Shown here: positions 2,913 to 33,907 of the stretch, piece by piece
Numbering within the stretch: position 1 is the stretch's first letter
Layout: every line of letters starts with the position of its first letter
NCBI GenBank assembly: GCA_021146325.1
Contig: GCA_021146325.1_4321.1
Origin: a phage
Reading direction: 5' to 3' (one strand)
DNA length: 45,885 nt
Notes under the pieces: generated by a model
Told to the model about the DNA's origin: nothing
The model's database searches: none
What the model saw: only the letters and a program-made list of their open reading frames with translations
Program-made: the position numbers and the translations under genes

Positions 2913-2958
2913 CAATAGCACGAATAGCTAAAACTAATACGCAAAACCCTGTATAGTT
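2913..2958 (+). promoter_or_regulatory. promoter cassette copy (IR TAGCACGAATAGCTA, 22 bp, ATAGTT) upstream of the methyltransferase gene
   Basis: IR core 2916..2930. Confidence 0.5.
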
Positions 2959-2989
2959 GGTCACACAAAAAACGAGAGAGGATTTCAAA

Positions 2990-3679
2990 ATGGTTATTTG
3001 GTCTTTATTTGATGGTTCAGGGCTGGCTGTGAAAGATTGGGCTGAGGCTTGTCACGAGTGCTACTGTTTCAACTTTGATGAGTCTGACCACGGTAGTTAC
3101 GGGGATTTAAATGCAAAATTTGAACATGAGAACATCACCTACGTTAATGCCTGGATAGATGGCAACTTCGACTTTGATGTGAAGCCTGATATCATTTTAG
3201 CGTTCCCGCCGTGTACGGATTTAGCCGTGAGCGGGTCAAGGCACTTTGAGCGAAAGCGACTGGTTAACCATAACTTCCAGATTGAAGCTGCGGAAACATG
3301 TAAAGTTGCTTTTAACTTGGCTAATAAGTACGAAGTCACATACATGATTGAGAATCCAATCAGCGTACTGTCATCACTCTGGAGAAAGCCTAATAAGACT
3401 TTCCACCCATATGAATACGGAGGCTATTTGCCGGAAGATGATTTACACCCGTTTTTTAGCGACCTAATAAAGCCAAAAGACGCATATCCCAAGAAGACAT
3501 GCATTTGGTATGGCAATGGGTTTAAATGGCCAGAGGCGATTCCTGTGGACGTTAACGATGGATTCTCTGACCAATACAAGAAGCTTGGTGGGAAGAGTAA
3601 GAAGACAAAGGTAATTCGCAGTCTAACTCCTCGCGGTTTTGCAAAAGCAGTCTTCATAGCAAATAGCACGAATAGATAA
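2990..3679 (+). CDS. DNA (cytosine-5) methyltransferase, short orphan type
   Basis: motif I LFDGSG, motif IV FPPCTDLAVSG, motif VI-like ENP, C-terminal LTPRGFAKA; ATG at 2990 has RBS GAGAGG (the ORF track began at TTG 2957). Confidence 0.7.
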   Translation: MVIWSLFDGSGLAVKDWAEACHECYCFNFDESDHGSYGDLNAKFEHENITYVNAWIDGNFDFDVKPDIILAFPPCTDLAVSGSRHFERKRLVNHNFQIEAAETCKVAFNLANKYEVTYMIENPISVLSSLWRKPNKTFHPYEYGGYLPEDDLHPFFSDLIKPKDAYPKKTCIWYGNGFKWPEAIPVDVNDGFSDQYKKLGGKSKKTKVIRSLTPRGFAKAVFIANSTNR

Positions 3680-3706
3680 AGACAAATCCCAAGGATGAGA
3701 TATCAT
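3661..3706 (+). promoter_or_regulatory. promoter cassette copy (IR TAGCACGAATAGATA, 22 bp, TATCAT, CATTGAAACGAAA) overlapping the methyltransferase 3' end
   Basis: IR core 3664..3678; motif supplies codons NSTNR and the stop. Confidence 0.6.
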
Positions 3707-3717
3707 TACTCCATTGA

Positions 3718-3977
<260 letters not shown>

Positions 3978-3978
<1 letters not shown>

Positions 3979-4913
3979 TGGCTCAGGGTATCTATATAGA
4001 CCTTAATGACGGAAGGAATCCAATGACAATTACCTCAGGGATGAGGGCGTTAAGCTTCGCTGGAAACTTTAACGTTAATAGTGGTGGCTTTAGTAAGACA
4101 TTCTCAATTAAGGGAAATGAAGGTGCATCACGTTTTTTAATTCCTAATAATGGTGCCTTCAGCTTCGAGCTTGACAGGGGTGTTGAGCTTTATTATATAA
4201 GTGGATTTTCATCAACACCTACATCTGGGACAATCTCAATAGGTTCAGTGAATGGATATTCTGACAGGGTCACGTCATTTTCAGGGACTGTTGTTGAGGT
4301 CTTGAGGGCATCAAGCGGCCATGGCATATACGTTGCTGATAGTAGTGATTTTGCATCAATAACAACTGCTGACAGGTTGCTAGTATGCAAGTACTCTAAA
4401 AGGGTAACTTTTACAGGTTCATTCAATCTCCCTATTTATGGAATACCGTTCGGTAAGTGGGATAATGGTGGAGTTTCAGTTGAGTACAACGGAAGCAACC
4501 AGCTTATTTGCACAAACATAAACACAGTAAATACTGGGAACACTCCTGGAACTGTTACACTTGACTTGCTAATATTTCAGTTGGTTACACCAACGCCTGG
4601 GCCTGGCATAAACATTTTCAACTCTAACAATGTTTGCACATTCTCAACATTGACAAGACCATTGGTTGTGTCTGGATTTATAAGTCTGTCAGGAAGCAAT
4701 CAATACATAGGTAGTTCATACTTCCCAATACTTAGATGTGGGTTTAACACAAGGGCGATACGTGCTTACAAGGAGTTGCGAAATAAGGGAATTGTTATGT
4801 CCGGTGGATACGTTAGATCTGGTACTGGATCAAGGATTTTGAGATACGTTATTGGTAATAGACCAGATGTAACCATATCAACTCCATTGCCATACTTGCC
4901 TGATATGTATTAA
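3978..4913 (+). CDS. hypothetical Gly/Ser/Thr-rich protein of unknown function
   Basis: 312-aa ORF from ATG 3978 (RBS AAGGAG); opposite strand to the tail module. Confidence 0.55.
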
Positions 4914-4915
4914 AG

Positions 4916-4941
4916 ATAAAGCCCCTTTCGGGGCTTTTATG
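4916..4941. terminator. bidirectional rho-independent terminator (GCCCC-TTTC-GGGGC)
   Basis: hairpin 4921..4934 with T-run on plus and A-run upstream; between convergent genes. Confidence 0.7.
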
Positions 4942-7900
4942 TTAGAACGTTCCTACAATTACTTTTCCTCCATTAGGTAGGTTAACTGTGATTCCGTTTC
5001 CGTTAATCTGAACCGTATTGTTAGTTCCGTTAAATGCAAAGTTACCACTATCTGCGTAAAGCCTTCCATGAATTTCTGCATTACCAGACTTCTCAATCCT
5101 CCACCCAGCACTTCCTTGAACAAAGTTGTTTGATTGAATCGAGTTACCAATCTTCGCGTTAGTGATTGAACCATCCTGAATCACTGCGCTTTGAATGAAT
5201 ACCTGATTACCTTCAACTACGAAAGGCAATGACCACTGACCGGATCCAGAGCTAATGCCGTTACTGATTGCTAACCTGTTAGCATCAAAGATGACCTGAC
5301 TACGAACATTGCCATCAGAACCAGTTAGCTCCATACTCATGCCAGAACTGTACTCAACGCCATTGTATTTGAGGCCAAGTTTAATCCCGTACTGAGCACC
5401 AATTGAATCGGCAGTAACGTAAGTGTCCAACTTCTCATTTAACGCAGCCTCATTATCACCTAGCCTTGCAGATAAAGCAGTGTCCGCAGTGGTCCTTGCT
5501 TGCGTCTCTTCCGCTAGCGCCGTATCAATCCTTGTCAATGAAGCTACAATCTCGTCATCAATCTGCGCCTTAAGCTGCGTCAGAGCCTCTACGCGAGCCC
5601 TTTCTTCATCGGCGATAAGATTCACAGCCTGAACAAATTCGGCCCTCCTCTTGCCGTTTTCCTTCGTCATTCTACGCACGTCACCATCATTAGCCAGGGC
5701 GTTCTCAATTATTGATTCCGCTTGCGCCTGAATAGCTCCGTTTGACTCAATGGCATTCTGTTGGAGATACTTGAACCCATCTGAGTTTTCTATATCAACC
5801 TTAATATCACCAATGATTGACGACACATCATCGCTTGCCATACCCCTTACAAAATCAGTCCATGGTGAGACGTTACCAATCTTGTCAATCAGTCGCGCCC
5901 TGTACCAGATGACCTTTCCAGCAGGAAGTGTAGTATGCCAGTACTCGTAACTCGGGTAAGGCACCAGAGTCAGAAGGCTAGCATTCTCTGGTGTATAAGT
6001 ACCATCACCATTGTCGGCTACTTGCTGCAATTCAGTGTATGACGTATCGGCTGAGTTTTCAGGAAATCCCCACTTAACCCTAATGCCGAATATTTCATCA
6101 TCTGAAGCGGTGATTACTGTAGGTGAAGAGGGGGTCCCAATCTTGCCTGTGAGGCTTACTGAAACAATGTCAGACCATGCGGATACGTTTTCAGTATCAG
6201 AAACGGCCCTTACGCGAACCTGGTAAATTCCGGCATAGATACCTTCAATATCAACCTCTGTGCTTGCTGTGCGCGGCACGTTAATCCAGTTTCCGTTCTC
6301 CTTGCGCCACTGGACCGTGTAGGTTTTCGCGTACTGAACCTTGTCCCACGTGATTACCATTGTCTCAACTGATAAACCCTGAACAACCTTACTGTAACTG
6401 CTAACCTGAACATTCTCGGGTGCCAGTAATGTATCTGGCTCCACGATTGAAGTTGGCCTGTCCTGAATGTTTACGCCGTAATCAATCTCGTCGTATTTGT
6501 TCGGGTCGTACTCAACTGCGGTAATCGTGTAACCAAACGCATCATCTCCATCGCTGTCTGCTTTTTGAATACCGGTCACAACATATTGCTGAAGAGCAAG
6601 ATTTTCCTTATCAATCGCAAATACTGTGTCAGGCTGAGGAGTAAAGCTAAACGCTGTATTAAGTTGCAGCGTCATACCATCTTCAGATACAGATGCAATG
6701 GTCCTGTACTCTGGCATTCCATCAGGCTTGTTTATTAGAATCCTGTCGCCAGCAGTAGCATCAATCTTAAATGGCACAAAAACTTGCAACCCACTTACTG
6801 ACTCGATACGACCAGAAAGGTTAAGGGTGTAGTTGCTAGACCATGCCTGGTCATTAACTGCAATAACCTCACCAATCATTGGAATCATACCTTCCAGACC
6901 AGTAGTGAAACTAATAGTCTCGCTGCGAATGTTCGTCTTTAATAACCAGCGCCCGCGGCGGTTTGCCTCACTCCTGCGAGTACATCCAATAGCTGTAAGG
7001 TCGACCGGGTTGTAACCAAAACGCCTTGTTGCCTCTAACTCGAATACTTGCTCAACATCCTGTTGGTATGAGTTTTCAGCGTCATCAAACTGAACGTTGG
7101 CAACCGTGTAAAGTGACTTATCGCTACCAAATGTACGGTTGAACAATCCATCAACAACGTTGTCATTGGTGAATACGTACGATGGTTGACGCGGCTTATC
7201 GACAACAATCCCTATCTGCTCGCCGTCATAGAATGTCAGCCCACGGAAGATAGAGCAAATATCACGGATTAACTGATATGCTTCAACTTTCTGCTGAATG
7301 ACAACATCACACAGGTAGCGCGGCTCAACTCCACCCTTACCATCTGGAACCATCTGGTCACAGAATTGCGCCGCCTCATACAGACCCCACTTATCAATAG
7401 TAATGCCAAGCTCTCGCTGGTCAAGTCCGTAACGCTTATTCGTCACCAAGTCGTAAAGAACCCACGCCGGGTTATTGGAATACGCCATCTTAAAGGTGCC
7501 GTTCCAGGTTCCGCTGTAAGTCCTTGTCTCTGGGTTGTAGTTAGTTGGAACGCGAATCAACTTCCACTTCTTCTTGATTGAAATCGTCGGGATTCCGTTA
7601 GGGAAGAGGTCAGAACTGAACTCAACGTAAACCAGCGCTGTAAGTGGGTAGCGGAATTTAGCATCAATTACTTCCTGATAGGTCGTAATTTGCATGTCGT
7701 TAACCAGCGTCGAACTTTCTGAATCTGCCGTGATCTTACGAACCCTCACCAACGCACTCGAGAACTCAGCAGGAAGGTTAACCCTGATACTTCTGTCGTA
7801 CCCGCTAGTTGTCTTGCCATTAACTACTCCGCGCGTGTACTCAGTGTATGTAGCGCCATCAACGGACAGGTCAATCGCATACTCGCAAGTGGTACCGTTA

Positions 7901-8352
7901 AGATCTCCGTTACTTTCCTGATTAATCAGACGAGGCCAAAACAGCTTAACCCTAATCGCTGATAGCTGGGTGTTATTAACAGCAATGATGTAAGGAGTTG
8001 AGTTTTTAATCTCCCTGTTCACTTGCACTTCCGAGTTAGCACCCTCTAGCCCGGCAATGTAATCCTGACTCTGTGTGCCAGGGCGAAACTCTGCCGTTAC
8101 ACCCTCGTAGTTGTATGTGCCATTCTGGTTCTGTACAGGAACGTCAGCAAGGTAAAGGTCCTTTAGGGAGAATGAGCTATCAACCTCACCATCAGAAACA
8201 GCTAGCAAAACCTTAACCTTGTTTACTGATATCAGGTTATCAGGCTGCTCTACAGGTTGGTGCGGCTTTGGCTGTCCGCCCTTACTTCCATAAATCTTAA
8301 TTTCTTCCGCCATATCACATAGCTCCGCATTTGTTTTGACCATTTGTGCCAT
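4942..8352 (-). CDS. host specificity protein J-like central tail fiber
   Basis: 1136-aa ORF at the lambda J position after I/K/L/M; size and fibronectin-like C-terminal region. Confidence 0.85.
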   Translation of the reverse strand: MAQMVKTNAELCDMAEEIKIYGSKGGQPKPHQPVEQPDNLISVNKVKVLLAVSDGEVDSSFSLKDLYLADVPVQNQNGTYNYEGVTAEFRPGTQSQDYIAGLEGANSEVQVNREIKNSTPYIIAVNNTQLSAIRVKLFWPRLINQESNGDLNGTTCEYAIDLSVDGATYTEYTRGVVNGKTTSGYDRSIRVNLPAEFSSALVRVRKITADSESSTLVNDMQITTYQEVIDAKFRYPLTALVYVEFSSDLFPNGIPTISIKKKWKLIRVPTNYNPETRTYSGTWNGTFKMAYSNNPAWVLYDLVTNKRYGLDQRELGITIDKWGLYEAAQFCDQMVPDGKGGVEPRYLCDVVIQQKVEAYQLIRDICSIFRGLTFYDGEQIGIVVDKPRQPSYVFTNDNVVDGLFNRTFGSDKSLYTVANVQFDDAENSYQQDVEQVFELEATRRFGYNPVDLTAIGCTRRSEANRRGRWLLKTNIRSETISFTTGLEGMIPMIGEVIAVNDQAWSSNYTLNLSGRIESVSGLQVFVPFKIDATAGDRILINKPDGMPEYRTIASVSEDGMTLQLNTAFSFTPQPDTVFAIDKENLALQQYVVTGIQKADSDGDDAFGYTITAVEYDPNKYDEIDYGVNIQDRPTSIVEPDTLLAPENVQVSSYSKVVQGLSVETMVITWDKVQYAKTYTVQWRKENGNWINVPRTASTEVDIEGIYAGIYQVRVRAVSDTENVSAWSDIVSVSLTGKIGTPSSPTVITASDDEIFGIRVKWGFPENSADTSYTELQQVADNGDGTYTPENASLLTLVPYPSYEYWHTTLPAGKVIWYRARLIDKIGNVSPWTDFVRGMASDDVSSIIGDIKVDIENSDGFKYLQQNAIESNGAIQAQAESIIENALANDGDVRRMTKENGKRRAEFVQAVNLIADEERARVEALTQLKAQIDDEIVASLTRIDTALAEETQARTTADTALSARLGDNEAALNEKLDTYVTADSIGAQYGIKLGLKYNGVEYSSGMSMELTGSDGNVRSQVIFDANRLAISNGISSGSGQWSLPFVVEGNQVFIQSAVIQDGSITNAKIGNSIQSNNFVQGSAGWRIEKSGNAEIHGRLYADSGNFAFNGTNNTVQINGNGITVNLPNGGKVIVGTF

Positions 8353-8360
8353 TCTACACT

Positions 8361-8386
8361 AAATAAAAAACCCGCACTAGGCGGGT
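8361..8386 (-). terminator. rho-independent terminator (CCCGC-N5-GCGGG then T-run on minus)
   Basis: hairpin 8371..8385. Confidence 0.5.
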
Positions 8387-8392
8387 CTTAAT

Positions 8393-8968
8393 TTAAGCGA
8401 TATCTTCTGAGTAACTCCCAGCACTAAATACAGAGCCGCCAACACTTCGATAACCGTATGGCAAACATATTGGGTATCCAGCAGCTACAGTGTTAACAGC
8501 CGACCCGAATGCGTATGAAGCCCTGTTTTGCGCAGACTCCTGCGTCTTTAATCCAGTTGCTTGTGGGGAAAGTAACTGAGCTACACCGCCAGCAGCTAGT
8601 GAGATACCAGCACCAAGAACAGCGGTTGCAATACCACCAGTAAGGAAGAAGCTAGCACCAATGAGCGCCGCACCTAGTACTGTCTGGAATAACCCTCCGC
8701 TTTTTCTTCCTTGAGGTATTGGCATAATACGAATCTCACCAACTGCCTTAAAATCCTTGATACGATGTTCATTAAGGTTCTTCCCGTCAGCAAATATTGC
8801 GAACCTAGTCCTTTGTCCAGCATGGCTTTGCATGAACTCTTTAAATGCTGGAATGTTTACCGATAATGCTCGAAGTGCTTCCGGTACAGACTCCACGCAC
8901 AACTCATGGACTTTCCCGTACCTTCTGCCAAGTGACAAGCCCAGCTTAACCTTAATCAGTCTCTGCAT
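8393..8968 (-). CDS. tail assembly protein I-like
   Basis: position after K; Gly/Ala-rich hydrophobic C-terminal half; likely start MQRLIKV at 8968. Confidence 0.65.
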   Translation of the reverse strand: MQRLIKVKLGLSLGRRYGKVHELCVESVPEALRALSVNIPAFKEFMQSHAGQRTRFAIFADGKNLNEHRIKDFKAVGEIRIMPIPQGRKSGGLFQTVLGAALIGASFFLTGGIATAVLGAGISLAAGGVAQLLSPQATGLKTQESAQNRASYAFGSAVNTVAAGYPICLPYGYRSVGGSVFSAGSYSEDIA

Positions 8969-9710
8969 TGTAATTTGCTCCTTCTGGTAAATCTTTGTGG
9001 CGAACGATTCGAACGGTACGCTCACGCCAGTAATCACTATAGGTATCCACTTTACTCATCTTGCCGTAAAGATGGTGCAAGAACTTATTGTCTCCAATGT
9101 AGATTCCTGCGTGGTTTGTGGCCTCACTTTGAATCTGCATCATAATCATGGAGCCAACTGGAATATCATCAGTTTCGACTAGCTCAAATCCTTCCTTAAT
9201 CCAGTTGTCATCATAGATATTTTCTCCATACTCCTTGTTCCACCATGGGTAATTAACGCGGTAGTCAGCCAGTTTGACGCCGTGCTTTGCGTGGAATGAC
9301 ATTATCAATCCCCAGCAATCGAAGCTACCCAAACCCCACGGTCTTCCTGCTAGCGGCATATCAACTGGTTCAAGGATTCGCAGATCTCCTTCCGGGTAAC
9401 TAACGATGACATATGGAATCTCGCACTCATTGCAACTGCATATGTCTGCCGGGCTAGGCCTTGTAGTTGCACCATCTCCAGTGTGTGAGTGAACTACGTA
9501 AACAATTGACTCGCTGTAGCCAAGATTAAAGACAATATTCATGTACTCACTGGCGTCAAGAATGAACTCATTTTCAGGGTCTTTCGATGCGTTGGTGATT
9601 CTATGGTATTTTTGTGCCATGCCTTTTTGGGTGACTACGCCGCAGCACTCGTTTGGGTAATCCTCTTTTGCGTGGCGCATGATTTCTAGTTTAACTTTTG
9701 GTGTAAGCAT
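8952..9710 (-). CDS. tail tip protein K-like (JAB/MPN plus NlpC/P60 domains)
   Basis: H-x-H metal motif VVHSHTGDG and downstream Cys/His; likely start MLTPKV at 9710. Confidence 0.75.
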   Translation of the reverse strand: MLTPKVKLEIMRHAKEDYPNECCGVVTQKGMAQKYHRITNASKDPENEFILDASEYMNIVFNLGYSESIVYVVHSHTGDGATTRPSPADICSCNECEIPYVIVSYPEGDLRILEPVDMPLAGRPWGLGSFDCWGLIMSFHAKHGVKLADYRVNYPWWNKEYGENIYDDNWIKEGFELVETDDIPVGSMIMMQIQSEATNHAGIYIGDNKFLHHLYGKMSKVDTYSDYWRERTVRIVRHKDLPEGANYNAETD

Positions 9711-9720
9711 TTTAGACTCC

Positions 9721-10476
9721 TTAGTTCTGGTTATTCTTGGCTTGCAAGCTAGCAGAGGCACAACCTCCAAATGATAGCTGGTTGTTTTCACCAAACCTTA
9801 ACTTACATGCATCAACAGTTCCGGCGCAGAAATCCAGGCCAGGGTCATCAACCGGATTATTGTCTTTATCAAAGTATCGATTCCCGGCATAATCACAACC
9901 GTTACCACTACGATACCAGCCACGGGAAGCGAAGTAGCATACTGACTGGACTAACCTCGCTGGAATATAAATGCCATCCATATCAATTGGGCTAGATAAC
10001 TCAAAAGAGGCAGTTTTGTAGTCAACCTGCTTTGGACGCTCAATAAAGTAAACCATCTTACGATAATCACCATCTGCAATGCTGCCGTCCTCATTGATAT
10101 TATCCCTGATAGTAACCCAAATTGTCACCTTAGCCTGAACCATGCCATTATACTGACGTATTAGCGCGGAAACAGCCTGGTCTACGTTTGATAAAATTAG
10201 CGTGAGCTTGTTTGCTTTGCCGTCAGAAGTAAGATTAATGCCGCTAATACCGAAAGGCCTGGCTCCATACTCTTCTCCACGGAAAGTGATTGTCTTGGAT
10301 GGTAGTGGCTGGCCGGACGCTTGGGCTTGCATGATTTCTTCAGGCGTGTATGAGATGCTCTCCCCATGAAACCTGTAAACACTTGCCCCGAATTTACTTC
10401 CGTCAACCTCAATAAGCGTAACCACTTCACCAGGAAAAAGTGATTGAAGCTGGTTTTCAAACTTTAAACTTGCCAT
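9721..10476 (-). CDS. minor tail protein L-like
   Basis: 251-aa ORF with C-terminal Cys cluster, between M and K. Confidence 0.75.
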   Translation of the reverse strand: MASLKFENQLQSLFPGEVVTLIEVDGSKFGASVYRFHGESISYTPEEIMQAQASGQPLPSKTITFRGEEYGARPFGISGINLTSDGKANKLTLILSNVDQAVSALIRQYNGMVQAKVTIWVTIRDNINEDGSIADGDYRKMVYFIERPKQVDYKTASFELSSPIDMDGIYIPARLVQSVCYFASRGWYRSGNGCDYAGNRYFDKDNNPVDDPGLDFCAGTVDACKLRFGENNQLSFGGCASASLQAKNNQN

Positions 10477-10514
10477 ATTCTCTCCAATAAAAAAGGCCCT
10501 CTATGGGCCTTAGT

Positions 10515-10865
10515 TTAACTCATTGAAGTAAAAACTTCAGTAAATTGCATGCTAACAGTCTGGACTTCTTTTGTGCTAGGAGTGACGCTGATACTATCCT
10601 GCTGAATAACAAACAGCTTTAATTCACCCTGTGGCGTAGTCCATGCGAAAGGTTTTACAATGTGATCAAAGCAGAAGTTCATTACTGCCTCCCACTCACG
10701 ACCAACGTAGCTAACCGTATACGTCCTTTTGTTTGTCCTGTATCCTCCAGTACCCCTTTGTTCAAAGCCGTTGCCAAAGGATACAATTCTAACGTTGTTC
10801 TTGTTACTAAATAATGATCCACCGTTGAGAACGTTCAAGCACCAGTTAAATGTTTGCAATGCCAT
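10515..10865 (-). CDS. minor tail protein M-like
   Basis: 116-aa ORF directly after the tape measure gene. Confidence 0.7.
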   Translation of the reverse strand: MALQTFNWCLNVLNGGSLFSNKNNVRIVSFGNGFEQRGTGGYRTNKRTYTVSYVGREWEAVMNFCFDHIVKPFAWTTPQGELKLFVIQQDSISVTPSTKEVQTVSMQFTEVFTSMS

Positions 10866-10876
10866 TTAAAATCCTT

Positions 10877-10891
10877 AGGGGCCGAAGCCCC
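10877..10891 (-). other. RNA hairpin GGGGC-UUCG-GCCCC (on the minus transcript) between tape measure and M genes
   Basis: perfect 5-bp stem with UUCG tetraloop; embedded in the shared 16-mer GCCGAAGCCCCGTTAA. Confidence 0.5.
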
Positions 10892-10896
10892 GTTAA

Positions 10897-13878
10897 TTAG
10901 TTGTAACCCCTCAGATAAGCAAAGGCTCTTCCGCCCTGCTGGAATGACTTGCTGATTTCCTCAGCAACGATAACCTTAACTCCAGATTCTATCGCCTTGG
11001 CATCATTTCCGCCACCAATTCCAGAGTTTACGTTAACCGTCACGCCGCCAACACTGACATTCGTGCCACCAACAACTCCACCATTAGCATAGCCAGAGGG
11101 CCCACCAACAGCGCCGCCATTTGCATAACCTCGCATTAGCTTGTACAGGTTCTTAACGCCAATCCTGCTTGTAGCTTCTTTTGTGAATACAAACTCACCG
11201 CGGTGCACAGTTCCAGCAGGTTGATACTTCCCGCCGTCTCCAGTGTAGCCGCCACCAGCAAAGCCAATTGCTGACTTTATTGACTCAAAGGCACTACCTG
11301 CTCCAGTGTCACCACCAAAGCTCTTAATTGTAGATTCAATAGCCTTTACCAAAAGTAGCTGAGTTGCAATTTTCGCAATCATTTTCAGTATGTTTGCCGT
11401 GAACTCCCTGAAATTAGTCTCTCCAGTGGTTACAAGGTTTGTAATCTGGTAGGTAATTCCATCAAAAGCTGCGACAGTCAAATCCTTAGCAATTTGGTTG
11501 AAGTCAGTATACTTCTCAGTTAAGTCAGCAAGCGTTGAAGTTACACCAGCTTGCCAGTCTGACCTTAGGTTATCTTCCTGCCTGTAGTATTCTTTTCTTG
11601 CTTCCAGCAGATTTTGGAAATCAACATCATCTACAGAGCCACCCTTGTTTACCTGATTGGACTCTAGCGCCTGAAGTTCTCCTGCCCTTTGCCGCTCCCT
11701 TTCGGATAGACCCGCAGCAAGTGAAACATTCTTCGCCTCATTGGTAATCTGTATTGTCTTCTTAAGGTTGTCATCAAGTAACTTGTTTGACTTCTCCTGA
11801 AGCACAATCTGGTCACCAAGTTCAGCCTTCTGTTTAGCCTGTTCAAGAATGATATTCTTCTGCGCAAGTAGCTTAGCCTGTGATTTTGTAAGCGTACCAT
11901 CCGCTTGTCTTTGTTCAAGTATTGCAAACTTCGCTTCTTCCTGGAATAACTGCTTTCTTTCATTGCTTATTACATCATTTATCGTTCTGTGCTCTTGTAA
12001 GACCTTTAACTGAGCCTGAAGTGCAAGAACGCCAGATTCATAAGATAAAGTTAAATCCCTTTCTTCTTTTACAGCCTTTTTCCTCTCACTCCTTGCTTTC
12101 TTTATCGTATCATACTCATCGGCAAGAGCCTTCTTCCTTGCTGCAAACTCCTTATCGGTTGATGCATTATTGCCGCTAAGGTTGGTGTTATTGTTGTTCT
12201 CGACATAACCAAGCTCACCCTTCCTGATTCTCGCATCTCGCTCAGCTATGCTTTTTGCTAACTCCTCATTTTGCTTCTTAGCTGCATCAACAATCTTTTG
12301 CTGCTCAGCGATTGCTTCATTGCCTAAATCGCCAAGTCCAGGTATTGACTGAAGTGTCTTGGTTGCTGCTATTGCAAACTCGCCCAATAGGATATCACCG
12401 GAGTTTATTAACGACCTTATCTGCTCAATAGTCCCAGCAACAACGTCAGTTATTAAGTTAAGCGCCCCAAGCGTCCTTTTGCTTATACCATCCCAAATCT
12501 CACTTACAAACTTCCTGAAGCTATTCCATGCGCTCTCAAGAGGGTTAAGGCTTAGTGCTACGTCTGCTAGCCTGTTTTCCATAACGTTAGCGAATAGCTC
12601 AGTAGCTGCGGTTACAGCCTCTGTTTCTCCAGCCGTCTTCCTGATATTCTCAATGTATTTCAATTGCCCAGACTGAAGGAAGTTGAACTGCTTATCGAGT
12701 GCAATCAGACCTTGAATTGGGTCCTTTGTAATCTGATCAAAGTATCCAAGAATAGTTTTCGAGTCTGTTGATGTTACAGTTGCCCATTGTGCTGTCGCCT
12801 TGGTTATCTTATCTATCTGCGTAAGAGTCAGATTACCGTTTGCTACCAGGCTGTTAGCTATCTCCTGGATAAGTCCGCGCGTGGCTAGTGTTGAACTCTC
12901 AATGCTATCAACAACCTGGTTTATTTGCCCTGTTGATGTGATTGTTGAGTTTCCAACCAGCGTTATTGTTGCTGCTAGCTCTCGTGCGTTCCTATCAGCC
13001 TGATAAGCAGCAATACCCAAGGCCCCAAGAGCCAGACCCAGAGTCCCAACAACCGCCGTTAATGGGTTAATGGCTGCCAGTGCAAACCTTGCTGTATTGC
13101 CGATACCACCAAAACTATCCTTAATCTGACCGCCCTGCTGGACTGCTACAAGCCAGATTGGCATGCCGCTAGCAAGAGATGTAACGATATCTGTAATCTG
13201 CGCTGGAAGCTGTCGAATTGCTTGCTTGTATTGACCGGCACTAAGCCCAGACTTAACAAAAGCGGAGCTTTGCTTCTGCAATTGTACCGCAGATGCCTCG
13301 GCAGCCTTTCCAATCCTGTCGATAATCGGTGCAGCCTGGTCACTAACTCCTAGCTGAGCAGCCTTAAGCTGAAGAAGTTCAGTCCTTGTCAGGCTTGCTG
13401 CATTCGCCTCGTTCTCAAGAGATTGAATGAACTTTTGCGCTGCTGTTGTTGCTTTCTCTTTATCTATTGATGCCTGTAGTGCAGCCCTGCCTTCTTCGCT
13501 AAGAGCGGCTTTAGACCTGTTTAGCTTATTGATTTGAGTTTCAATAACAGAGCCAAGCCTGAAGAATTCATCATCAGGAACTATCCCGGATTCAAATGCT
13601 TTGTCCAAATCTGTTGCTGCTTTCTGCAACTTCAGGAATTTAGCAGCGGTTGGGTCTATGGCTTGCTGAAGTGATGCGAAAGATTTGCGCTGCTCCTCAA
13701 GATGCCTTGCAGTGTCCCTTGCTTGAGTCTTGGCTACAAGTTCGGCGTTGACGAAGCTATTAATGCCTGTTGCAGCTTGCTCGTTTGCTTGCCTGAATTT
13801 CTGTAAGGATTGCGTACCCTTATCGACCTGAGCTACGTCGACGGCTAGCGTGATACCAGCAATTTCGTTAGTTGCCAT
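10897..13878 (-). CDS. tail tape measure protein
   Basis: 993-aa ORF, coiled-coil rich, Gly-rich C-terminus, downstream of the G/GT chaperone. Confidence 0.9.
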   Translation of the reverse strand: MATNEIAGITLAVDVAQVDKGTQSLQKFRQANEQAATGINSFVNAELVAKTQARDTARHLEEQRKSFASLQQAIDPTAAKFLKLQKAATDLDKAFESGIVPDDEFFRLGSVIETQINKLNRSKAALSEEGRAALQASIDKEKATTAAQKFIQSLENEANAASLTRTELLQLKAAQLGVSDQAAPIIDRIGKAAEASAVQLQKQSSAFVKSGLSAGQYKQAIRQLPAQITDIVTSLASGMPIWLVAVQQGGQIKDSFGGIGNTARFALAAINPLTAVVGTLGLALGALGIAAYQADRNARELAATITLVGNSTITSTGQINQVVDSIESSTLATRGLIQEIANSLVANGNLTLTQIDKITKATAQWATVTSTDSKTILGYFDQITKDPIQGLIALDKQFNFLQSGQLKYIENIRKTAGETEAVTAATELFANVMENRLADVALSLNPLESAWNSFRKFVSEIWDGISKRTLGALNLITDVVAGTIEQIRSLINSGDILLGEFAIAATKTLQSIPGLGDLGNEAIAEQQKIVDAAKKQNEELAKSIAERDARIRKGELGYVENNNNTNLSGNNASTDKEFAARKKALADEYDTIKKARSERKKAVKEERDLTLSYESGVLALQAQLKVLQEHRTINDVISNERKQLFQEEAKFAILEQRQADGTLTKSQAKLLAQKNIILEQAKQKAELGDQIVLQEKSNKLLDDNLKKTIQITNEAKNVSLAAGLSERERQRAGELQALESNQVNKGGSVDDVDFQNLLEARKEYYRQEDNLRSDWQAGVTSTLADLTEKYTDFNQIAKDLTVAAFDGITYQITNLVTTGETNFREFTANILKMIAKIATQLLLVKAIESTIKSFGGDTGAGSAFESIKSAIGFAGGGYTGDGGKYQPAGTVHRGEFVFTKEATSRIGVKNLYKLMRGYANGGAVGGPSGYANGGVVGGTNVSVGGVTVNVNSGIGGGNDAKAIESGVKVIVAEEISKSFQQGGRAFAYLRGYN

Positions 13879-15607: not shown

Positions 15608-16006
15608 TTAGTCAAGACGAACATAGAAACGAACTGGAATAAACCAGCCAGATTTTGACTTCACTACTGGGTGAACCACGCCGCCCTCATAAATGTAGCC
15701 TGTGTCAAGCATTGTACCATCAGTCATGGATTCTGCCAATTGATTAGCAACCCTCCTTGCACTGTCGACACCATCACCTGGTGAGAAAAAGACGGATACC
15801 TGAACCATGCCAACATAGTACTTACACTTGCGACTCAGGCTGTAGGTTACGGTATCTGCCTCTGTGTAATCGTATTTCAGCCACATACCACCATTATTGG
15901 GAGGAGAGAAGGCTACGTTTTCATAGGAAATTGGATACCTGACTGGAAACGTTTTAACCAAATCAGTCACAAACCTCCTTGCTGCTAAGGATAGCTCATA
16001 CTGCAT
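15608..16006 (-). CDS. tail terminator or completion protein (putative)
   Basis: gene order only. Confidence 0.45.
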   Translation of the reverse strand: MQYELSLAARRFVTDLVKTFPVRYPISYENVAFSPPNNGGMWLKYDYTEADTVTYSLSRKCKYYVGMVQVSVFFSPGDGVDSARRVANQLAESMTDGTMLDTGYIYEGGVVHPVVKSKSGWFIPVRFYVRLD

Positions 16007-16452: not shown

Positions 16453-16819
16453 CCCTCCTTAGAATTGGTCTGTAAGCCACTATAGTTCCTGTTGGTTTGA
16501 CTGGCCTCGGGTCGACTACAGTGTAAGTTTCATCGTCAACTATAATCCTGTAGCCCTGCAAGATTGGGACTTCAGAAGTGAAAATTCCACGCTTGTCACC
16601 AAACTGGATATATTCGCCATCAATATCTCTGGTTTTAATCTCCCTCACCAGCCCCTTGATTAATGCAGTGCCGCCAGCTACAGGAACCTCAACGCCGTCA
16701 ACAATTTCGACACCACCTTTACCAGTATTCATCGTGAATGTACCATCGCCATCACTAAAGATATTGATGCCCGTGCGCATTAATGATTCTACTTGGGAGT
16801 AATTCATTGGCAACCGCAC
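16436..16819 (-). CDS. head-tail adaptor or head closure protein (putative)
   Basis: gene order only. Confidence 0.45.
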   Translation of the reverse strand: MRLPMNYSQVESLMRTGINIFSDGDGTFTMNTGKGGVEIVDGVEVPVAGGTALIKGLVREIKTRDIDGEYIQFGDKRGIFTSEVPILQGYRIIVDDETYTVVDPRPVKPTGTIVAYRPILRRVATYG

Positions 16820-17214
16820 TCACGCCCAGCGGACGTAATCAAGCCAAATCCGCCGCCTTTCTTGCGCAGGAGATTCCAGTAAAGTCTGCCCCACGGCGTA
16901 GCTGTCAATGATGATTGAGTTTGCGAGGTGGATTCATAGCTGATAGAAAATTCACCGCTCAGGGAGTAACTTGCCACCTTCTTGCCATAATCATCCAGCG
17001 ACTCATTCTGCTTAAGCGCGCCATCAAGAAAGGCAATGTGCAGAGTGTATAGCGACAGCGCTTTATAAGCATCATCACCAAACTTACTGGTGCAGATGTA
17101 TAGCTTAGCTAACTCAAGCCATACGTCCAGCGTTTCATCTGGAATATTCTTAAGAGCAGGAACCAGCGACTTCATAAAGGCTAATGCTTGTTCGTTCATA
17201 AAACCTCCATACAA
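16804..17214 (-). CDS. head-tail connector protein (putative)
   Basis: gene order only. Confidence 0.45.
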   Translation of the reverse strand: MYGGFMNEQALAFMKSLVPALKNIPDETLDVWLELAKLYICTSKFGDDAYKALSLYTLHIAFLDGALKQNESLDDYGKKVASYSLSGEFSISYESTSQTQSSLTATPWGRLYWNLLRKKGGGFGLITSAGRECGCQ

Positions 17215-17579: not shown

Positions 17580-18527
17580 TTACGCAGTAAAGGTAATGCC
17601 TTTGATTACTGCGAAAGTTAGAGGCCTATAAATAACCAAGCCTGTGGACTTGGAAGTTACAGGGAATCGGAAGTGCAAGTCGCGCGGCTGAGCAGGTAAC
17701 ACGTTAGTCGCTTCTGGAATCTCAATACTAGCATTTAATGCGTTCTTCTCAAATGCCAGTGCAGCTTTTCCATTTGCGCCATCGTAGTTATCCAGGAACT
17801 GCATGTAGCGCAAGGTGATACCTGGGTTATTGCGAGTAAATAACTCACCATAGCTTAAGGTTGTATTATCAACCAGTCGCTGCATGTAGCGGCGAGCAGA
17901 TGCTGGCAACAGAATGTCAGTTACATGGTGGAATCCTTTAGTACTGCTCTCAACCGCGTCAATCATTGCGGCAATGTCGTTAACTGCGTTTTGCGGAACG
18001 CTCCAATTAGGGGTTGCAACTACGTTGTTAATATTCGGATGCTTAAAAACACTTACGATTCCGTGCGGAGAAGAGCCGGACCATACCAGTTTATCGAGCA
18101 GGTTGTCGTGAGCCTCGAAAGCCAGAGCCTGTTTACGAGCAGACAATGACTGACCAGTAGCTGCGCCAACTTTAATCTCATCAACTGAGATCATAAACGC
18201 GTTACCAAAGCGGAATACTTTACCCTGCTTCTCTGTCATGAGCGCATCAACCAACGGCAGGTCGTCAGAGTAATCAGAGATAATCTGAGCAATACCAACA
18301 CCATCAAACTCTGGATACTCGAAGTACTTCGCGTGACCAGGGATTTCATTGGTTACAGGAAAGATATTAACAACTGAGTTATCTGAGTATTCTTGTTCGT
18401 AAGCGCGATTCAGTGATGCGGTTAACTGCTTAACGGTCCAGATACCAGCAGCATCAGCCTTATCTACACCCATTTGCTCAAGGTGAGCGGTGATTTTTGC
18501 TTGTTCTGCATCAAATTTAATGGCCAT
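17580..18527 (-). CDS. major capsid protein
   Basis: 315-aa ORF, position and size; strong terminator downstream. Confidence 0.8.
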   Translation of the reverse strand: MAIKFDAEQAKITAHLEQMGVDKADAAGIWTVKQLTASLNRAYEQEYSDNSVVNIFPVTNEIPGHAKYFEYPEFDGVGIAQIISDYSDDLPLVDALMTEKQGKVFRFGNAFMISVDEIKVGAATGQSLSARKQALAFEAHDNLLDKLVWSGSSPHGIVSVFKHPNINNVVATPNWSVPQNAVNDIAAMIDAVESSTKGFHHVTDILLPASARRYMQRLVDNTTLSYGELFTRNNPGITLRYMQFLDNYDGANGKAALAFEKNALNASIEIPEATNVLPAQPRDLHFRFPVTSKSTGLVIYRPLTFAVIKGITFTA

Positions 18528-18664: not shown

Positions 18665-19165
18665 TTACTTCTGCTTAACCTGAACTTCTACCAGAGGACC
18701 ATCAACGCTATCACCTTGAGTTGGTGGCATTGCGTCAGCTGCGGTTTTTGCGGGAATGAATCCGCCAGCGAATGTCCAGCCAGTTGCCACGCCGTCATCT
18801 GCTGTGCTTGCAACAACTACGCCATCTGAATTCACCAAAACGGCAGTACCTAAGCTTGGCGCTACTTTAAGGTTAGTGCGCATCCAGATTCGGCCAGCGG
18901 TCATTACGTTAACAGCCTCTTTCGCTTTAGCGGTGCCATCTTGAGTCTCGTAATGAGAACGAACAACTACGCCATAAGCCGAGTTTGCAGTAATACCAGT
19001 TGCAGTAACGGATTTGTGACCATCAGCTAACGGTTGTAGCGTAGATACTTTAACAGCTACACCAACAGGAATTGCAGTGTCACCGCCAACTACACAAGCG
19101 CCATCGATATTGTACAGGGAAGTATCAGCCACCATACCTGCCAGTGCTACAGAACGAATTGCCAT
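18665..19165 (-). CDS. putative head decoration or stabilisation protein
   Basis: 166-aa Ala/Gly/Val-rich ORF just upstream of the capsid gene. Confidence 0.45.
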   Translation of the reverse strand: MAIRSVALAGMVADTSLYNIDGACVVGGDTAIPVGVAVKVSTLQPLADGHKSVTATGITANSAYGVVVRSHYETQDGTAKAKEAVNVMTAGRIWMRTNLKVAPSLGTAVLVNSDGVVVASTADDGVATGWTFAGGFIPAKTAADAMPPTQGDSVDGPLVEVQVKQK

Positions 19166-24398: not shown

Positions 24399-24465
24399 GT
24401 AGCTGCTATCATGTAATACGCCAATAATGCCTTAATCAATTATATCATACCAACCCGCCATGTTC

Positions 24466-24990
24466 TTACAGTTTGCTAATCACAGACTCCAGAGCTTCCT
24501 TCATCGTTTCGACGTCGTTAGCAGAAGAGTTATTGCTTATAGTGATCTCCTGCGGTTTGTCGATTCCAAGCTCCTTGGAAATCATGCCAGGGTTAACAAT
24601 GCCAGATGCTGCAAGCTGGTATTTCTGCTCGCGAATCACGGAATCAATGAATGCAATCACCTCATCATAACCAGCCGACTTCCTCCATTTCTCGATGGCG
24701 CTATGGGTGACACCGCAGTAAAGGCAGAATCCGGTTAGCGTGAAGACTCTTGGTTTGTGCACCAGGCTCTCTTTTACCACACCCTGGAAGCTGGCTGTCT
24801 CGATTGCCTTGATTGCCTGGTCCTCAGCCCATGAGAAGTATTTCACGGCGAATTCAAATAGCTGTTCGGGTGTCATGCTTCTGTTTTTGGCTAGCGTTGT
24901 AATGTCTGAGTACTTTTTATTGTACATGGCTTTAAAGTTGCCAGAGCGGACCTTTTCTTGCGCCTGACTGGTGAAGTTTTCGTCTTTCAT
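24466..24990 (-). CDS. terminase small subunit
   Basis: 174-aa ORF immediately upstream of TerL; strong RBS AAAGGAGG. Confidence 0.7.
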   Translation of the reverse strand: MKDENFTSQAQEKVRSGNFKAMYNKKYSDITTLAKNRSMTPEQLFEFAVKYFSWAEDQAIKAIETASFQGVVKESLVHKPRVFTLTGFCLYCGVTHSAIEKWRKSAGYDEVIAFIDSVIREQKYQLAASGIVNPGMISKELGIDKPQEITISNNSSANDVETMKEALESVISKL

Positions 24991-25035: not shown

Positions 25036-25062
25036 CGAAAAAAAGCCCTCAAGAATAGGGCG
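25036..25062 (-). terminator. rho-independent terminator ending the accessory operon
   Basis: hairpin CGCCCT-N7-AGGGC then T7 on minus. Confidence 0.6.
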
Positions 25063-25303: not shown

Positions 25304-25496
25304 TTTTTATCTTCCCGCTCTGATTGCTATAGTTTTGAGTTTCTCTTTCAAGCTCGAGATAACCTTTAATATCCGCGCTAACTGAAACCCCGCCAATCAC
25401 ACCCTTTAAGCATTTATGTTCACGGTCAAGTGTTGCGTTGAATTTTTGGGAAGTGCCGCTTTCAATATCTTTTACGATGATTGTTACTTTTTTCAT
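25284..25496 (-). CDS. hypothetical protein
   Basis: 70-aa ORF; overlaps the next ORF by 20 nt. Confidence 0.4.
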   Translation of the reverse strand: MKKVTIIVKDIESGTSQKFNATLDREHKCLKGVIGGVSVSADIKGYLELERETQNYSNQSGKIKNAALGC

Positions 25497-25527
25497 TTAA
25501 TCCCCCAGGATTATTGGTTTCTTAATT

Positions 25528-25603
25528 TGGTGTTCCGCACTGGACTCGAACCAGTAACTAAGACTTAGGAGGTCTTTGCGTTATCCTGTTACGCCAGCAG
25601 AAC
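25528..25603 (-). tRNA. tRNA-Arg (anticodon CCU)
   Basis: 76-nt cloverleaf folded by hand: 7-bp acceptor stem, D-arm GCGT/ACGC, anticodon loop CUCCUAA, T-arm ACTGG-TTCGAGT-CCAGT, 3' ACCA. Confidence 0.8.
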
Positions 25604-25772
25604 AAATCCTTGAGTAGCGATTGCGCTATTGAAGGATTGCTGGTTACGCTTCCAGCGTCGAGTTTCTCGACCGATTTCGCCATATACGCTGCTTAGTGAG
25701 TTATGGACTTTGTTGCCACTTGGTGGCCTCGTCTGTCTACAGTTGTTAATGTACCAGTCAGGGTTAGATGTG

Positions 25773-25970
25773 TCAACTTACTCTTTCGAATTTCCCATAA
25801 TTCTGGTCATACGGGTAGTCAATGCTCACCAATTCGCCATTATCGCTGTAGCAGAATGCGTGGCCAGTCTTCGATACCTTTTCGACCTGGTAATCGCATC
25901 CATCCATGAAGTCATCCGATGCCGCCTTTGTGCACTTGATAGCATCGCCTTTCTTAATAATCTTACTCAT
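25773..25970 (-). CDS. hypothetical protein
   Basis: 65-aa ORF. Confidence 0.4.
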   Translation of the reverse strand: MSKIIKKGDAIKCTKAASDDFMDGCDYQVEKVSKTGHAFCYSDNGELVSIDYPYDQNYGKFERVS

Positions 25971-32772: not shown

Positions 32773-33138
32773 CCTGAATATCATTAAGAGCAGAATGATG
32801 ATGACGCAAAACATGATTCCACTCCCAATCCACGGGATTGCAGACGAATCATTGTTGGTGATTTCAATCTTCTCAGCCGTGATTGTTGATGCCTTGATTG
32901 AGTTATCAGAAGTCTTTTTACCGCTTGAACTATCAAGAGTGTCAACCTTAGAGTTCTTCACTTCAGCCTTTGCGCTGGAACTTGAATCAACCTTATTAGT
33001 TAGCCCTACTCCAACCTTGTTATTCTCCGCACCTGCTTGAGCGCTAATCTCTGGCTTACTACCAATCAACCCGGTCAGCGCAGATGTTGCCGAGCAACCA
33101 GAAAGCAGAATTACCGCAGCAATTAATACAGCCTTCAT
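32752..33138 (-). CDS. unimolecular spanin (outer-membrane lipoprotein with C-terminal transmembrane helix)
   Basis: lipobox LLSGC, C-terminal TM IMFCVIIILLLMIF; follows the endolysin gene as in phage T1. Confidence 0.7.
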   Translation of the reverse strand: MKAVLIAAVILLSGCSATSALTGLIGSKPEISAQAGAENNKVGVGLTNKVDSSSSAKAEVKNSKVDTLDSSSGKKTSDNSIKASTITAEKIEITNNDSSAIPWIGSGIMFCVIIILLLMIFRKNKKAP

Positions 33139-33620
33139 TTACCCACCCCACTTAAGCATAATTTAATCTCCTCGTTGCGCCTGTTAACGAGGCCTTTAAC
33201 AACTTTTAGCTTGCCATTTACTCGAGCTTTATTCCAGGAGGCGAGAGCATTACAACCCTCTTCAATCTTGCCCTGATTAATCAGCTTAACAGCTGTTGAC
33301 TTCCTCATTGCAGAACCGCCAACGTTGTAGCTAAAGCTGATTAACGCAGCCCTTGTTTCTGCAGCAATTGGATATGTAACTGCATCCTGCACATACTTGC
33401 CATGAATCTGAATGTGCTTCTCCAGTAAGTTCCTGCACTCCCTTGCACTGTACTTTTTACCCCACACTACATCAGGACCAGTGATACCTGAACAAACCGT
33501 AGGAATGCCTGCAATGTCCATGTAAGGCTTGTATTCCACACCTTCTACTAGCTCAATAATCGGCGCTGCGATGTATATTGCCGCAGCCGTCGCTGCACTA
33601 ATTAACAGCTTCTGCTTCAT
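33135..33620 (-). CDS. endolysin, lysozyme-like with N-terminal signal-anchor-release-like segment
   Basis: catalytic spacing E-x8-D-x5-T (EGVEYKPYMDIAGIPT) and hydrophobic N-terminus. Confidence 0.75.
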   Translation of the reverse strand: MKQKLLISAATAAAIYIAAPIIELVEGVEYKPYMDIAGIPTVCSGITGPDVVWGKKYSARECRNLLEKHIQIHGKYVQDAVTYPIAAETRAALISFSYNVGGSAMRKSTAVKLINQGKIEEGCNALASWNKARVNGKLKVVKGLVNRRNEEIKLCLSGVGK

Positions 33621-33835
33621 TACTTACTCCTGATATTGATAGCTGTCTTTAAATCACCCGACTCTAGAGCCTTCCTGATTGCCTGACTGTCCTTAAACCT
33701 CCAACATGCTCCCCACAGCCCGAAAACAACAAAAGCCACAGTGCTGATTATTGCTATAGTCATTTGACCAGTTGCGGCACTAGTTACAGCGGCCCCGCCG
33801 GTTGATGCCGTGGCGGCGTTAATTACTTCCCTCAT
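33620..33835 (-). CDS. holin
   Basis: 71 aa from Met MREV (RBS AAAGGTGA) with hydrophobic TM segment and charged C-terminus; first gene of the lysis cassette. Confidence 0.6.
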   Translation of the reverse strand: MREVINAATASTGGAAVTSAATGQMTIAIISTVAFVVFGLWGACWRFKDSQAIRKALESGDLKTAINIRSK

Positions 33836-33878
33836 GTGATCACCTTTAAATCCTAATTTGTCAATACATAGTGCAAAT

Positions 33879-33907
33879 ATCATACATTAGCACTTTCTGA
33901 ATTGTAA
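33879..33907 (-). promoter_or_regulatory. sigma70-like promoter (TTACAA, 17 bp, TATGAT) upstream of the lysis cassette
   Basis: hexamers and spacing read on the minus strand. Confidence 0.35.

Follow-up and report, generated by a model that had tools for sequence, protein, structure and literature searches.

A tRNA-Arg(CCU) gene upstream of the terminase genes of a T1-like coliphage and its relation to AGG usage in late genes

The tRNA sets of phages T4 and T5 correspond to codons used more by the phage than by its host. Cowe and Sharp in 1991 and Kunisawa in 1992 reportedly tied the codon bias of T4 to its late genes. Codon compensation is named, in passages of PMC10264068, as the most widely accepted hypothesis for phage tRNAs. 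Among closer systems, passages of Kropinski et al. 2012 on the homologue in Rogue1 describe "an arginyl-tRNA ... recognizing the rare codon AGG" (PMC3496638), and passages of Niu et al. 2014 give "1 arginyl-tRNA" for each of four relatives (PMC4070988). Because of these two reports, both the gene and its AGG reading are already in print for close homologues. A counterpart with anticodon UCU appears in passages of the EC3a and SU57 papers (PMC5727068, PMC7718038), and the SU57 passages suggest that it helps with the rare arginine codon AGA (PMC7718038). The passages of this literature that deal with Rogue1-type and UCU tRNAs give no figures for AGG usage or late-gene bias.

Here we describe a tRNA-Arg(CCU) gene in a 45,885-base stretch of phage DNA, the whole of which we call the window. 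As in T4 and T5, the tRNA matches a codon that the phage over-uses relative to its host; however, T4 and T5 have clusters of 8-25 tRNAs, whereas this 46-kb genome has a single tRNA for a single codon. The tRNA as such is ordinary, already known from close homologues, and a textbook case of phage codon compensation. Our additions are quantitative, namely the restriction of AGG to late genes and the family-wide agreement of anticodon with codon usage, and they leave that category unchanged. The comparison of relatives works as a natural experiment on codon compensation, small but clean, and opens no new question. Of the elements treated here, only the leader RNA beside the tRNA may be new to the literature.

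The tRNA gene and its transcription unit

The window is from a T1-like coliphage (Drexlerviridae, Braunvirinae). We found T1 orthologues for 31 window ORFs, at 38-85% identity and in the same order as in T1. Roughly 1,100 phage records had a match to the TerL of the window. The tRNA region was 93% identical over 2.2 kb to that of Escherichia phage AN_ECEAS, and was also related to ES, CY1, TR1-3, IMM-001 and IME253, all of them Drexlerviridae (T1-like) coliphages. The phage family is virulent. We found no integrase in the window, where every ORF of at least 250 aa was either a T1 structural or replication orthologue or a member of a PHROG membrane-protein family.

ARAGORN called a single tRNA in the whole window, a tRNA-Arg with anticodon CCT on the minus strand, at exactly the coordinates where the first-pass annotation, which left the strand unstated, had folded a cloverleaf with anticodon CCU (Table 1). 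The Rfam tRNA model RF00005 also called it, matching 25531-25603 on the minus strand over the full model (positions 1-71) with 58.9 bits (E=2.6e-10), against a gathering score of 29. In RNAfold, the canonical cloverleaf was both the MFE and the centroid structure, with stems of 7, 4, 5 and 5 bp (acceptor, D, anticodon and T) and a 7-nt anticodon loop, CUCCUAA. The folding energy by itself was unexceptional (z=-1.6), and the case for the tRNA is therefore made by the covariance model and by conservation.

We then read the tertiary nucleotides directly from the sequence and observed U8, A14, G18G19, U33, G53-U54-U55-C56, A58 and C61; they are legible in GUUCUGCUGGCGUAACAGGAUAACGC...GGUUCGAGUCC, with T loop GUUCGA. 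The discriminator is A73, and the 3' CCA is encoded. Arginyl-tRNA synthetase (ArgRS) recognizes E. coli tRNA-Arg through A20, C35, and U36 or G36. All of these identity elements are there in the phage tRNA, with A20 after G18G19 and an anticodon of C34-C35-U36.

Across nine distinct CCU homologue copies, all 189 pair cells (21 pairs in each copy; 100%) were standard, compared with just 25-47% in partner-slid controls. Compensatory changes occurred at three pairs, 11-25, 27-43 and 49-65, and the covariation score was reached by 0 of 500 shuffles. Between the window and TR3, for example, A49-U65 is replaced by G49-C65, and against the Rogue1/JK06-type tRNA the window has point differences only, several of them compensatory (A27-U43 versus G27-C43; A49-U65 versus G49-C65). 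A chance cloverleaf is ruled out by the covariance-model score and the covariation: the tRNA-Arg(CCU) gene is real and under structural selection. At permissive thresholds, Rfam gave nothing besides the tRNA in 25480-25800.

Table 1. Features of the tRNA unit and AGG-rich genes in the window (minus strand marked -)
Feature	Coordinates	Strand	Evidence and remarks
J-like tail tip protein	4942..8352	-	AGG in 23/52 Arg codons; tandem AGG-AGG at codons 902-903
Tape measure protein	10897..13878	-	T1 orthologue mapping, codon counts; heaviest AGG user, 27/41 Arg codons
Tail terminator	15608..16006	-	phrog_179; AGG in 5/8 Arg codons; tandem pairs at codons 10-11 and 84-85
TerS (terminase small subunit)	24466..24990	-	phrog_606, E=1.6e-57; 56% identical to T1 TerS
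Intrinsic-terminator-like hairpin, GCCCT..AGGGC then T7	25045..25061	-	Scan; end of the short tRNA unit, before TerS
Small ORF, 62 aa	25115..25303	-	phrog_2919 (uncharacterised family); TR3 homologue annotated DUF3667
Small ORF, 70 aa	25284..25496	-	phrog_16862 (uncharacterised family); starts 31 nt downstream of the tRNA
tRNA-Arg(CCU) gene, 76 nt, 3' CCA encoded	25528..25603	-	ARAGORN, Rfam RF00005, cloverleaf MFE, covariation in 9 homologues
Structured 5' leader, several hairpins, ~145 nt between promoter and tRNA	25604..25747	-	
Leader double hairpin, GUCGA-GAAAC-UCGAC adjoining GCUGG-AAGCGUAA-CCAGC	25634..25676	-	Covariance model R1
Sigma-70-type promoter-like site, TTGACA-17 nt-TACATT with TG extension	25748..25776	-	Consensus scan, 10/12 matches; putative
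Holin and endolysin	33135..33883	-	Holin phrog_2877; AGG in 4/4 (holin) and 5/7 (endolysin) Arg codons

A 131-nt query around the tRNA matched 139 phage records, most of which have a homologous tRNA-Arg. The match was 100% in AN_ECEAS and ES, 95-97% in TR1-3, Rogue1, JK06, phiKP26, AKS96 and C119, and 92-94% in AHP24, AHS24, AHP42, Sd1 and phiEB49. In Rogue1, JK06, AHP24/AHS24/AHP42/AKS96, phiEB49 and TR1-3 (92-97% identity), the anticodon and the slot upstream of TerS are the same as in the window. A tRNA-Arg is already annotated in many of the matching records. The GenBank records of the nearest relatives, AN_ECEAS, ES, CY1 and Rao1, leave the gene unannotated, and the IMM-001 record has a hypothetical protein across it; supplying the missing gene is the annotation value of this analysis.

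The slot is co-oriented with the terminase genes and lies about 0.5-1.7 kb upstream of them, and the order was the same in TR3 and in the IMG/VR loci L005-L010 and L034. Most carriers, the window included, have the tRNA-Arg alone; Sd1 and L034 have additional tRNAs at the same slot. L034, a lineage with a TerL identity of 56%, has six, among them a tRNA-Arg(CCU) of different sequence. A general tRNA pattern scan of IMG/VR returned at least 120 stretches, mostly on unrelated contigs, and was too unspecific; through it, the tRNAs of AHS24 and e4/1c were confirmed on contigs L098 and L108, outside the TerL-centred loci.

On the minus strand, the unit runs from the promoter through the leader, the tRNA, the 70-aa ORF and the 62-aa ORF to the terminator. 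Next comes TerS, with which the packaging and morphogenesis block opens, and after it TerL and the remaining late genes. What the first-pass annotation had called an accessory operon is more exactly a short transcription unit directly upstream of the terminase genes. The promoter-like site is about 145 nt upstream of the tRNA +1. Using a regex scan, we found TTGAC-N17-TAnnAT followed by GTAGAC in 12 of the 15 loci scanned (window, TR3, EC3a, Rtp, Sf12, phiKP26, phiEB49, L012, L013, T1, L018 and L021), and the promoter stretches of L018 and L021 were identical to that of T1. A first MAFFT alignment of the upstream regions had made the promoter appear unique to the window, which the regex scan exposed as an alignment artefact. 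Downstream of the tRNA, a GGGGGA ribosome-binding site was read upstream of the 70-aa ORF, which is co-oriented with the tRNA and probably co-transcribed with it. In T1, too, a terminator is annotated at the corresponding position ahead of TerS.

AGG usage in the window and its relatives

No E. coli codon is rarer than AGG, for which the host has just one minor tRNA, argW. We counted codons in the window with a uniform greedy ORF caller and compared them with 31 annotated E. coli K-12 chromosomal genes. AGG was the commonest arginine codon in the window, at 12.0-12.6 per 1000 codons, against 1.04 in the 31 K-12 genes, bearing out the elevated usage that the first-pass annotation had expected. 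Its share of arginine codons was about 25-26.4% in the window, 2.4% in the K-12 genes and 10.4% in T1. Of all synonymous codons it was also the most fold-enriched, by 10.9-fold over K-12 and 2.5-fold over the tRNA-less T1.

In genes with a T1 orthologue, AGG made up 119 of 431 arginine codons in the window versus 40 of 476 in the T1 counterparts. Packaging, head, tail and lysis genes wrote 105 of 262 arginines as AGG (40.1%; 9.6% in T1), and replication and recombination genes 14 of 169 (8.3%; 6.6% in T1). The split was highly significant in the window (Fisher p=4e-14) but not significant in T1. That the AGG excess is restricted to late genes is an addition to the reading in the first-pass annotation. 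The helicase gp9 homologue (0/27 arginine codons), the gp23-like regulator (0/18) and exonuclease VIII (0/11) had no AGG at all. The tail terminator gene had two tandem AGG-AGG pairs, and the head-closure and tail-tip genes had one each. Such tandems stall or frameshift E. coli ribosomes when tRNA-Arg(CCU) is limiting.

The abundant virion proteins shunned AGG: we counted 1/11 arginine codons in the major head gene, 0/4 in the gp49 homologue and 0/3 in the gp45 homologue. Because the most abundant virion proteins avoid it, the AGG codon-count excess overstates the translational flux through AGG. From general phage biology, tape measure, tail tip and lysis proteins are expected to be low-copy, and it is mainly in these that the excess lies.

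Next, we compared 33 TerL-centred IMG/VR loci by scoring the same 14 orthologue families (packaging, head and proximal tail) in each; a locus had 5-13 of them. Seven loci with tRNA-Arg(CCU), counting AHS24 and e4/1c, whose tRNA lies outside the locus, used AGG for 18-33% of arginines and AGA for 6-11%. In three loci with tRNA-Arg(UCU), the figures were 6-11% for AGG and 17-19% for AGA, and in 20 tRNA-less loci they were 4-12% and 3-17%. AGG was higher in CCU carriers than in non-carriers (Mann-Whitney p=6e-5), a comparison in which carriers are phylogenetically clustered. The panel statistics are not phylogenetically independent, since the carriers are related phages that represent about two or three independent lineages. 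L034, the distant lineage with its own CCU sequence, reached 33% AGG, and therefore lends the panel some independence. One locus was an exception, L014, with 18% AGG and no tRNA within its 13-kb locus.

Whole genomes gave a similar picture. In phiJLA23 (CCU), AGG made up 31.6% of arginine codons in late versus 9.7% in early genes; in 12397V (UCU), late and early genes had 25.0% versus 17.1% AGA and 18.2% versus 9.4% AGG; and in T1, which has no tRNA, AGG was at 10.4% versus 6.2%. The carried anticodon thus co-varies with codon usage among the relatives, CCU with AGG and UCU with AGA. T1 and many other tRNA-less relatives grow on E. coli at 5-12% AGG, and the tRNA is therefore not a requirement of the family.

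We favor the view, with a probability of roughly three in four, that the gene encodes a functional phage-lineage tRNA-Arg(CCU) that adds AGG decoding capacity for late genes. Host RNA polymerase would transcribe the tRNA from the conserved sigma-70-type promoter, through the structured leader, and the precursor, whose CCA is already encoded, would be matured by RNase P and 3' trimming enzymes of the host. Host arginyl-tRNA synthetase would then charge the phage tRNA via A20, C35 and U36, and the charged tRNA would raise AGG decoding in late mRNAs, tandem AGG-AGG included, to the benefit of late-protein synthesis. The observation made in the first-pass annotation is confirmed, and its proposal that the tRNA aids translation of AGG-rich phage genes is supported, computationally, by the codon statistics and the comparison of relatives. 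As to the direction of cause, the presence of the tRNA alone may have allowed drift toward AGG. Such added decoding capacity would account for the use, by a virulent phage of 46 kb, of the rarest codon of its host for 40% of late-gene arginines. Heterologous expression of these genes, tail fibres and lysins for phage therapy among them, would accordingly need strains supplemented with argW or argU.

The leader RNA and other possible roles of the tRNA

The leader between promoter and tRNA was predicted to be more stable than expected from its composition, with an MFE of -39.2 kcal/mol (z=-3.0; 1 of 200 shuffles as good). RNAalifold found compensatory changes at 9 of 15 pairs over 10 Braunvirinae leaders, and the leader matched no Rfam family. 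Its double hairpin consists of a 5-bp stem and then a second 5-bp stem with a conserved loop end, CGUAA. The covariance model R1, built on this element, was run on 38 sources; in 28 of them, tRNA-less T1 included (7685-7737, in a 164-nt intergenic gap), it found one syntenic copy upstream of TerS. The sole other match was an off-syntenic one in L028. Outside Braunvirinae, the R1 matches were weak (E=0.016 in a family-wide search) and came from T1 and its near-identical, mutually non-independent relatives. Given a leader that stands without a tRNA in T1 and is followed by tRNAs elsewhere, the slot just after the leader appears to be the one that the tRNA genes of the family, from one to six, occupy.

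Candidate functions of the leader are RNA processing, RNA stability and a put-like cis-acting antiterminator, an element reviewed in PMC9378689. We counted 28 terminator-like sites in the late operon, where 17.3 +/- 4.3 would be expected. The late-gene strand of T1 has 11 annotated terminators, which extend from a point immediately ahead of TerS to where the tail genes end. The double hairpin might act as a put-type or other cis-acting processive antiterminator. A boxA-like string, UGCUCAUUAA, which we had seen by eye in the leaders of some relatives, lay inside a hairpin and was conserved neither in the window nor in T1; we therefore rejected it.

Among the alternatives to added decoding capacity, the one that survives best is a translational timer, in which AGG-written late genes await the build-up of the phage tRNA, so that late and lysis proteins are delayed or scaled; we consider it unlikely. 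The sharp AGG split between late and early genes in the window and in phiJLA23 (40% versus 8% and 32% versus 10%), which is weak and not significant in T1, would fit such a timer, as would the AGG-rich holin and endolysin, the tandem pairs in the tail terminator and head-closure genes, and the position of the tRNA directly upstream of the late block. However, plain codon compensation followed by relaxed selection after the arrival of the tRNA gives the same pattern, and AGG is avoided in those late proteins that are expressed most strongly.

A wider proposal, which ranks next and which we likewise hold to be rather unlikely, makes the tRNA a component of a late-expression module partly conserved in Drexlerviridae, with promoter, leader and tRNA acting as a joint transcriptional and translational timer. 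Here, a sigma-70 promoter and a leader RNA would stand before a late operon studded with intrinsic terminators, and a tRNA inserted after the leader in Rogunavirus/Braunvirinae would have allowed the late genes to be recoded with AGG (or AGA). If this were true, late translation would be gated by the phage's own tRNA.

The tRNA could also be a spare part against host defence, replacing or outlasting host tRNA-Arg that an anticodon nuclease or some other immune system directed at tRNAs cleaves or depletes in infected cells, with codon supply secondary. Passages of two papers report that phage (T5) tRNAs neutralise tRNA-cleaving defences in E. coli, the PARIS and retron effectors (PMC11464382, PMC11555353), and the broad-specificity P2 Old cleaves many tRNAs, those for arginine included (PMC12445682). 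All stems of the phage tRNA differ from those of argW, which could alter recognition by a nuclease; however, the anticodon loop is the same as that of argW, and the evasion model in passages of PMC10264068 needs changes in the anticodon loop. Furthermore, the tracking of AGG and AGA usage by CCU and UCU anticodons is not predicted by a pure defence role, the window and most carriers have just this one tRNA, and the tRNA-targeting defence literature that we examined names no defence aimed specifically at tRNA-Arg(CCU). We therefore regard a mainly anti-defence function as improbable.

Finally, a relic or by-product with no role in translation (a pseudogene in decay, a cloverleaf formed by chance, or what was once an attachment or recombination site) is scarcely credible, for although the folding energy is unremarkable and four close relatives have records without the annotation, the gene scores 58.9 bits with its invariant tertiary nucleotides and CCA intact, keeps all 21 pairs in nine distinct sequences with compensatory changes, has homologues in most of the 139 matching records, and lies in a window without an integrase.

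Relation to host argW and to the UCU tRNAs of relatives

We compared the phage gene with E. coli argW, the host tRNA-Arg(CCU). The anticodon and the 7-nt loop CUCCUAA are identical in the two tRNAs, and argW also has A20, a discriminator A and an encoded CCA. Overall, however, the identity is 63%, with differences in all four stems. A megablast search found no near match to the phage tRNA in 5,426 complete E. coli genomes, and its D-arm/anticodon-arm signature had no exact match among 185,579 species-representative genomes. The 63% identity and the two empty searches rule out a recent capture of host argW, and the gene is therefore one of the phage lineage. Moreover, argW is a chromosomal prophage attachment site (CPS-53 adjoins it), whereas the phage gene is found in a virulent phage without an integrase. 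An attachment-site or integration role was ruled out, as the family is virulent and the window has no integrase-sized ORF lacking a T1 structural or replication orthologue.

Phages with a tRNA-Arg(UCU) are Rtp-like phages, Guelphvirus and Veterinaerplatzvirus (Rtp, ACG-M12 relatives, EC3a, SU57, IME253 and BASEL Bas01-03). In these carriers, the genomic slot, the leader and the downstream flank are the same as for the CCU tRNA of the window. The anticodon UCU reads AGA and probably, by wobble, AGG; its carriers are AGA-rich, not AGG-rich. The 3' third of the UCU tRNA (variable loop, T arm, 3' acceptor strand and CCA) is identical to the window tRNA at 29 of 33 positions, whereas its D arm and anticodon arm are identical at 36 of 37 positions to E. 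coli argU and not to the CCU tRNA. The UCU tRNAs at the slot are thus mosaics, with argU-like D and anticodon arms joined to a 3' third like that of the CCU tRNA, which suggests that they arose by exchange of the anticodon domain rather than by point mutation.

An apparent tRNA landing pad ahead of TerS

The position that tRNA-Arg(CCU) occupies in the window, after the leader RNA and ahead of TerS, holds several tRNAs in other phages. We observed two in Shigella phage Sd1 (Trp-CCA and Arg-CCU) and six in a distant metagenomic relative (Arg-CCU, Ser-UGA, Ser-GCU, Asn, Trp and Met); thus, the slot before TerS behaves as a tRNA landing pad.

We also observed that tRNA-Arg(UCU) takes the same slot in Rtp-like, Veterinaerplatzvirus and BASEL Piccard phages. 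By sequence identity, this tRNA is a mosaic: its D arm and anticodon arm matched E. coli argU at 36/37 positions, whereas its variable loop, T arm, 3' acceptor strand and CCA matched the CCU tRNA of the window at 29/33. This mosaic identity suggests that tRNA-Arg(UCU) acquired its anticodon domain by exchange with an argU resembling that of the host.

Coordinates of features in the window and in related phage loci (L-numbers)
Feature	Source	Position	Strand
Promoter and leader	window	25604-25776	-
Promoter/leader element	L004 (T1)	7587-7737	
Leader element	L014	781-826	
Two tRNAs	L010 (Sd1)	8633-8787	
Six tRNAs	L034 (distant relative)	8322-8969	
tRNA-Arg(UCU)	L007 (Rtp)	4893-4969	
tRNA-Arg(UCU)	L005, L006, L159-L164		
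HNH homing endonuclease gene	L001	2392-2898	
HNH homing endonuclease gene	L002	2423-2899	
TerS-TerL spacer	window	24399-24465	
Major head protein, AGG/Arg 1/11	window	17580-18527	-
Head or virion protein, AGG/Arg 0/4	window	18665-19165	-
Head or virion protein, AGG/Arg 0/3	window	16804-17214	-
41-aa ORF	window	25558-25683	-
50-aa ORF	window	25416-25568	+

The promoter, the leader and the TerS-TerL gap

A sigma-70-like promoter (TTGAC-N17-TAnnAT, and after it GTAGAC) leads into a structured leader whose hairpins show covariation. Part of this leader is a double hairpin with CGUAA at the end of its second loop. We searched 38 Drexlerviridae sources for it and found it in 28, each time as a single copy upstream of TerS. 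T1 has no tRNA, yet is among the phages with the double hairpin. Matches beyond Braunvirinae were weak (E about 0.016), and Rfam holds no family for the element. Its possible functions are RNA processing, RNA stability, or put-like antitermination before the terminator-rich late operon. Phages AN_ECEAS, TR3, IME253 and EC3a carry a 19-nt segment, ACGGCGCACGGAGCGCAAC, that the window leader lacks (at ~25710, minus strand); in these relatives, the segment folds as a GCGC-ACGGA-GCGC hairpin.

Further downstream, a gene for an HNH homing endonuclease separates TerS from TerL in TR3 and AN_ECEAS. This gene is absent from the window, where TerS and TerL are therefore only 67 nt apart.

Exceptions in AGG usage

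In locus L014 (IMGVR_UViG_3300048919_000084, 1-13450), AGG made up 18% of arginine codons in the shared orthologue set. This locus carries the leader element, and no tRNA was found within the 13 kb examined of the 51.8-kb contig; either L014 is an exception to the association between the tRNA and AGG, or its tRNA lies elsewhere on the contig. Within the window, AGG is avoided almost wholly in the genes of the major head protein and of two further head or virion proteins, while 40-65% of arginines are AGG in the adjoining late genes.

Database records of the tRNA region

Coliphage-like identity to the tRNA region was also seen in records labelled Campylobacter phage A110b (MG065688) and Pseudomonas phage PsgS01F (PP134917). 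PsgS01F matched at 84.1%, equal to coliphages EC3a and UALMA_PCEc3, and shares with the latter a length of 44,679 bp. Both host labels may come from contamination or propagation artefacts.

The tRNA is unannotated in GenBank records of the closest relatives, though 95-100% identical: PP944860 (AN_ECEAS), OR466728 (ES), OQ357823 (CY1), PQ221054 (Rao1) and MF630922 (IMM-001), the last with a hypothetical protein annotated across it. Two mechanical ORFs overlapping the tRNA gene and leader in the window can almost certainly be dismissed as genes; they might misdirect automatic annotation.
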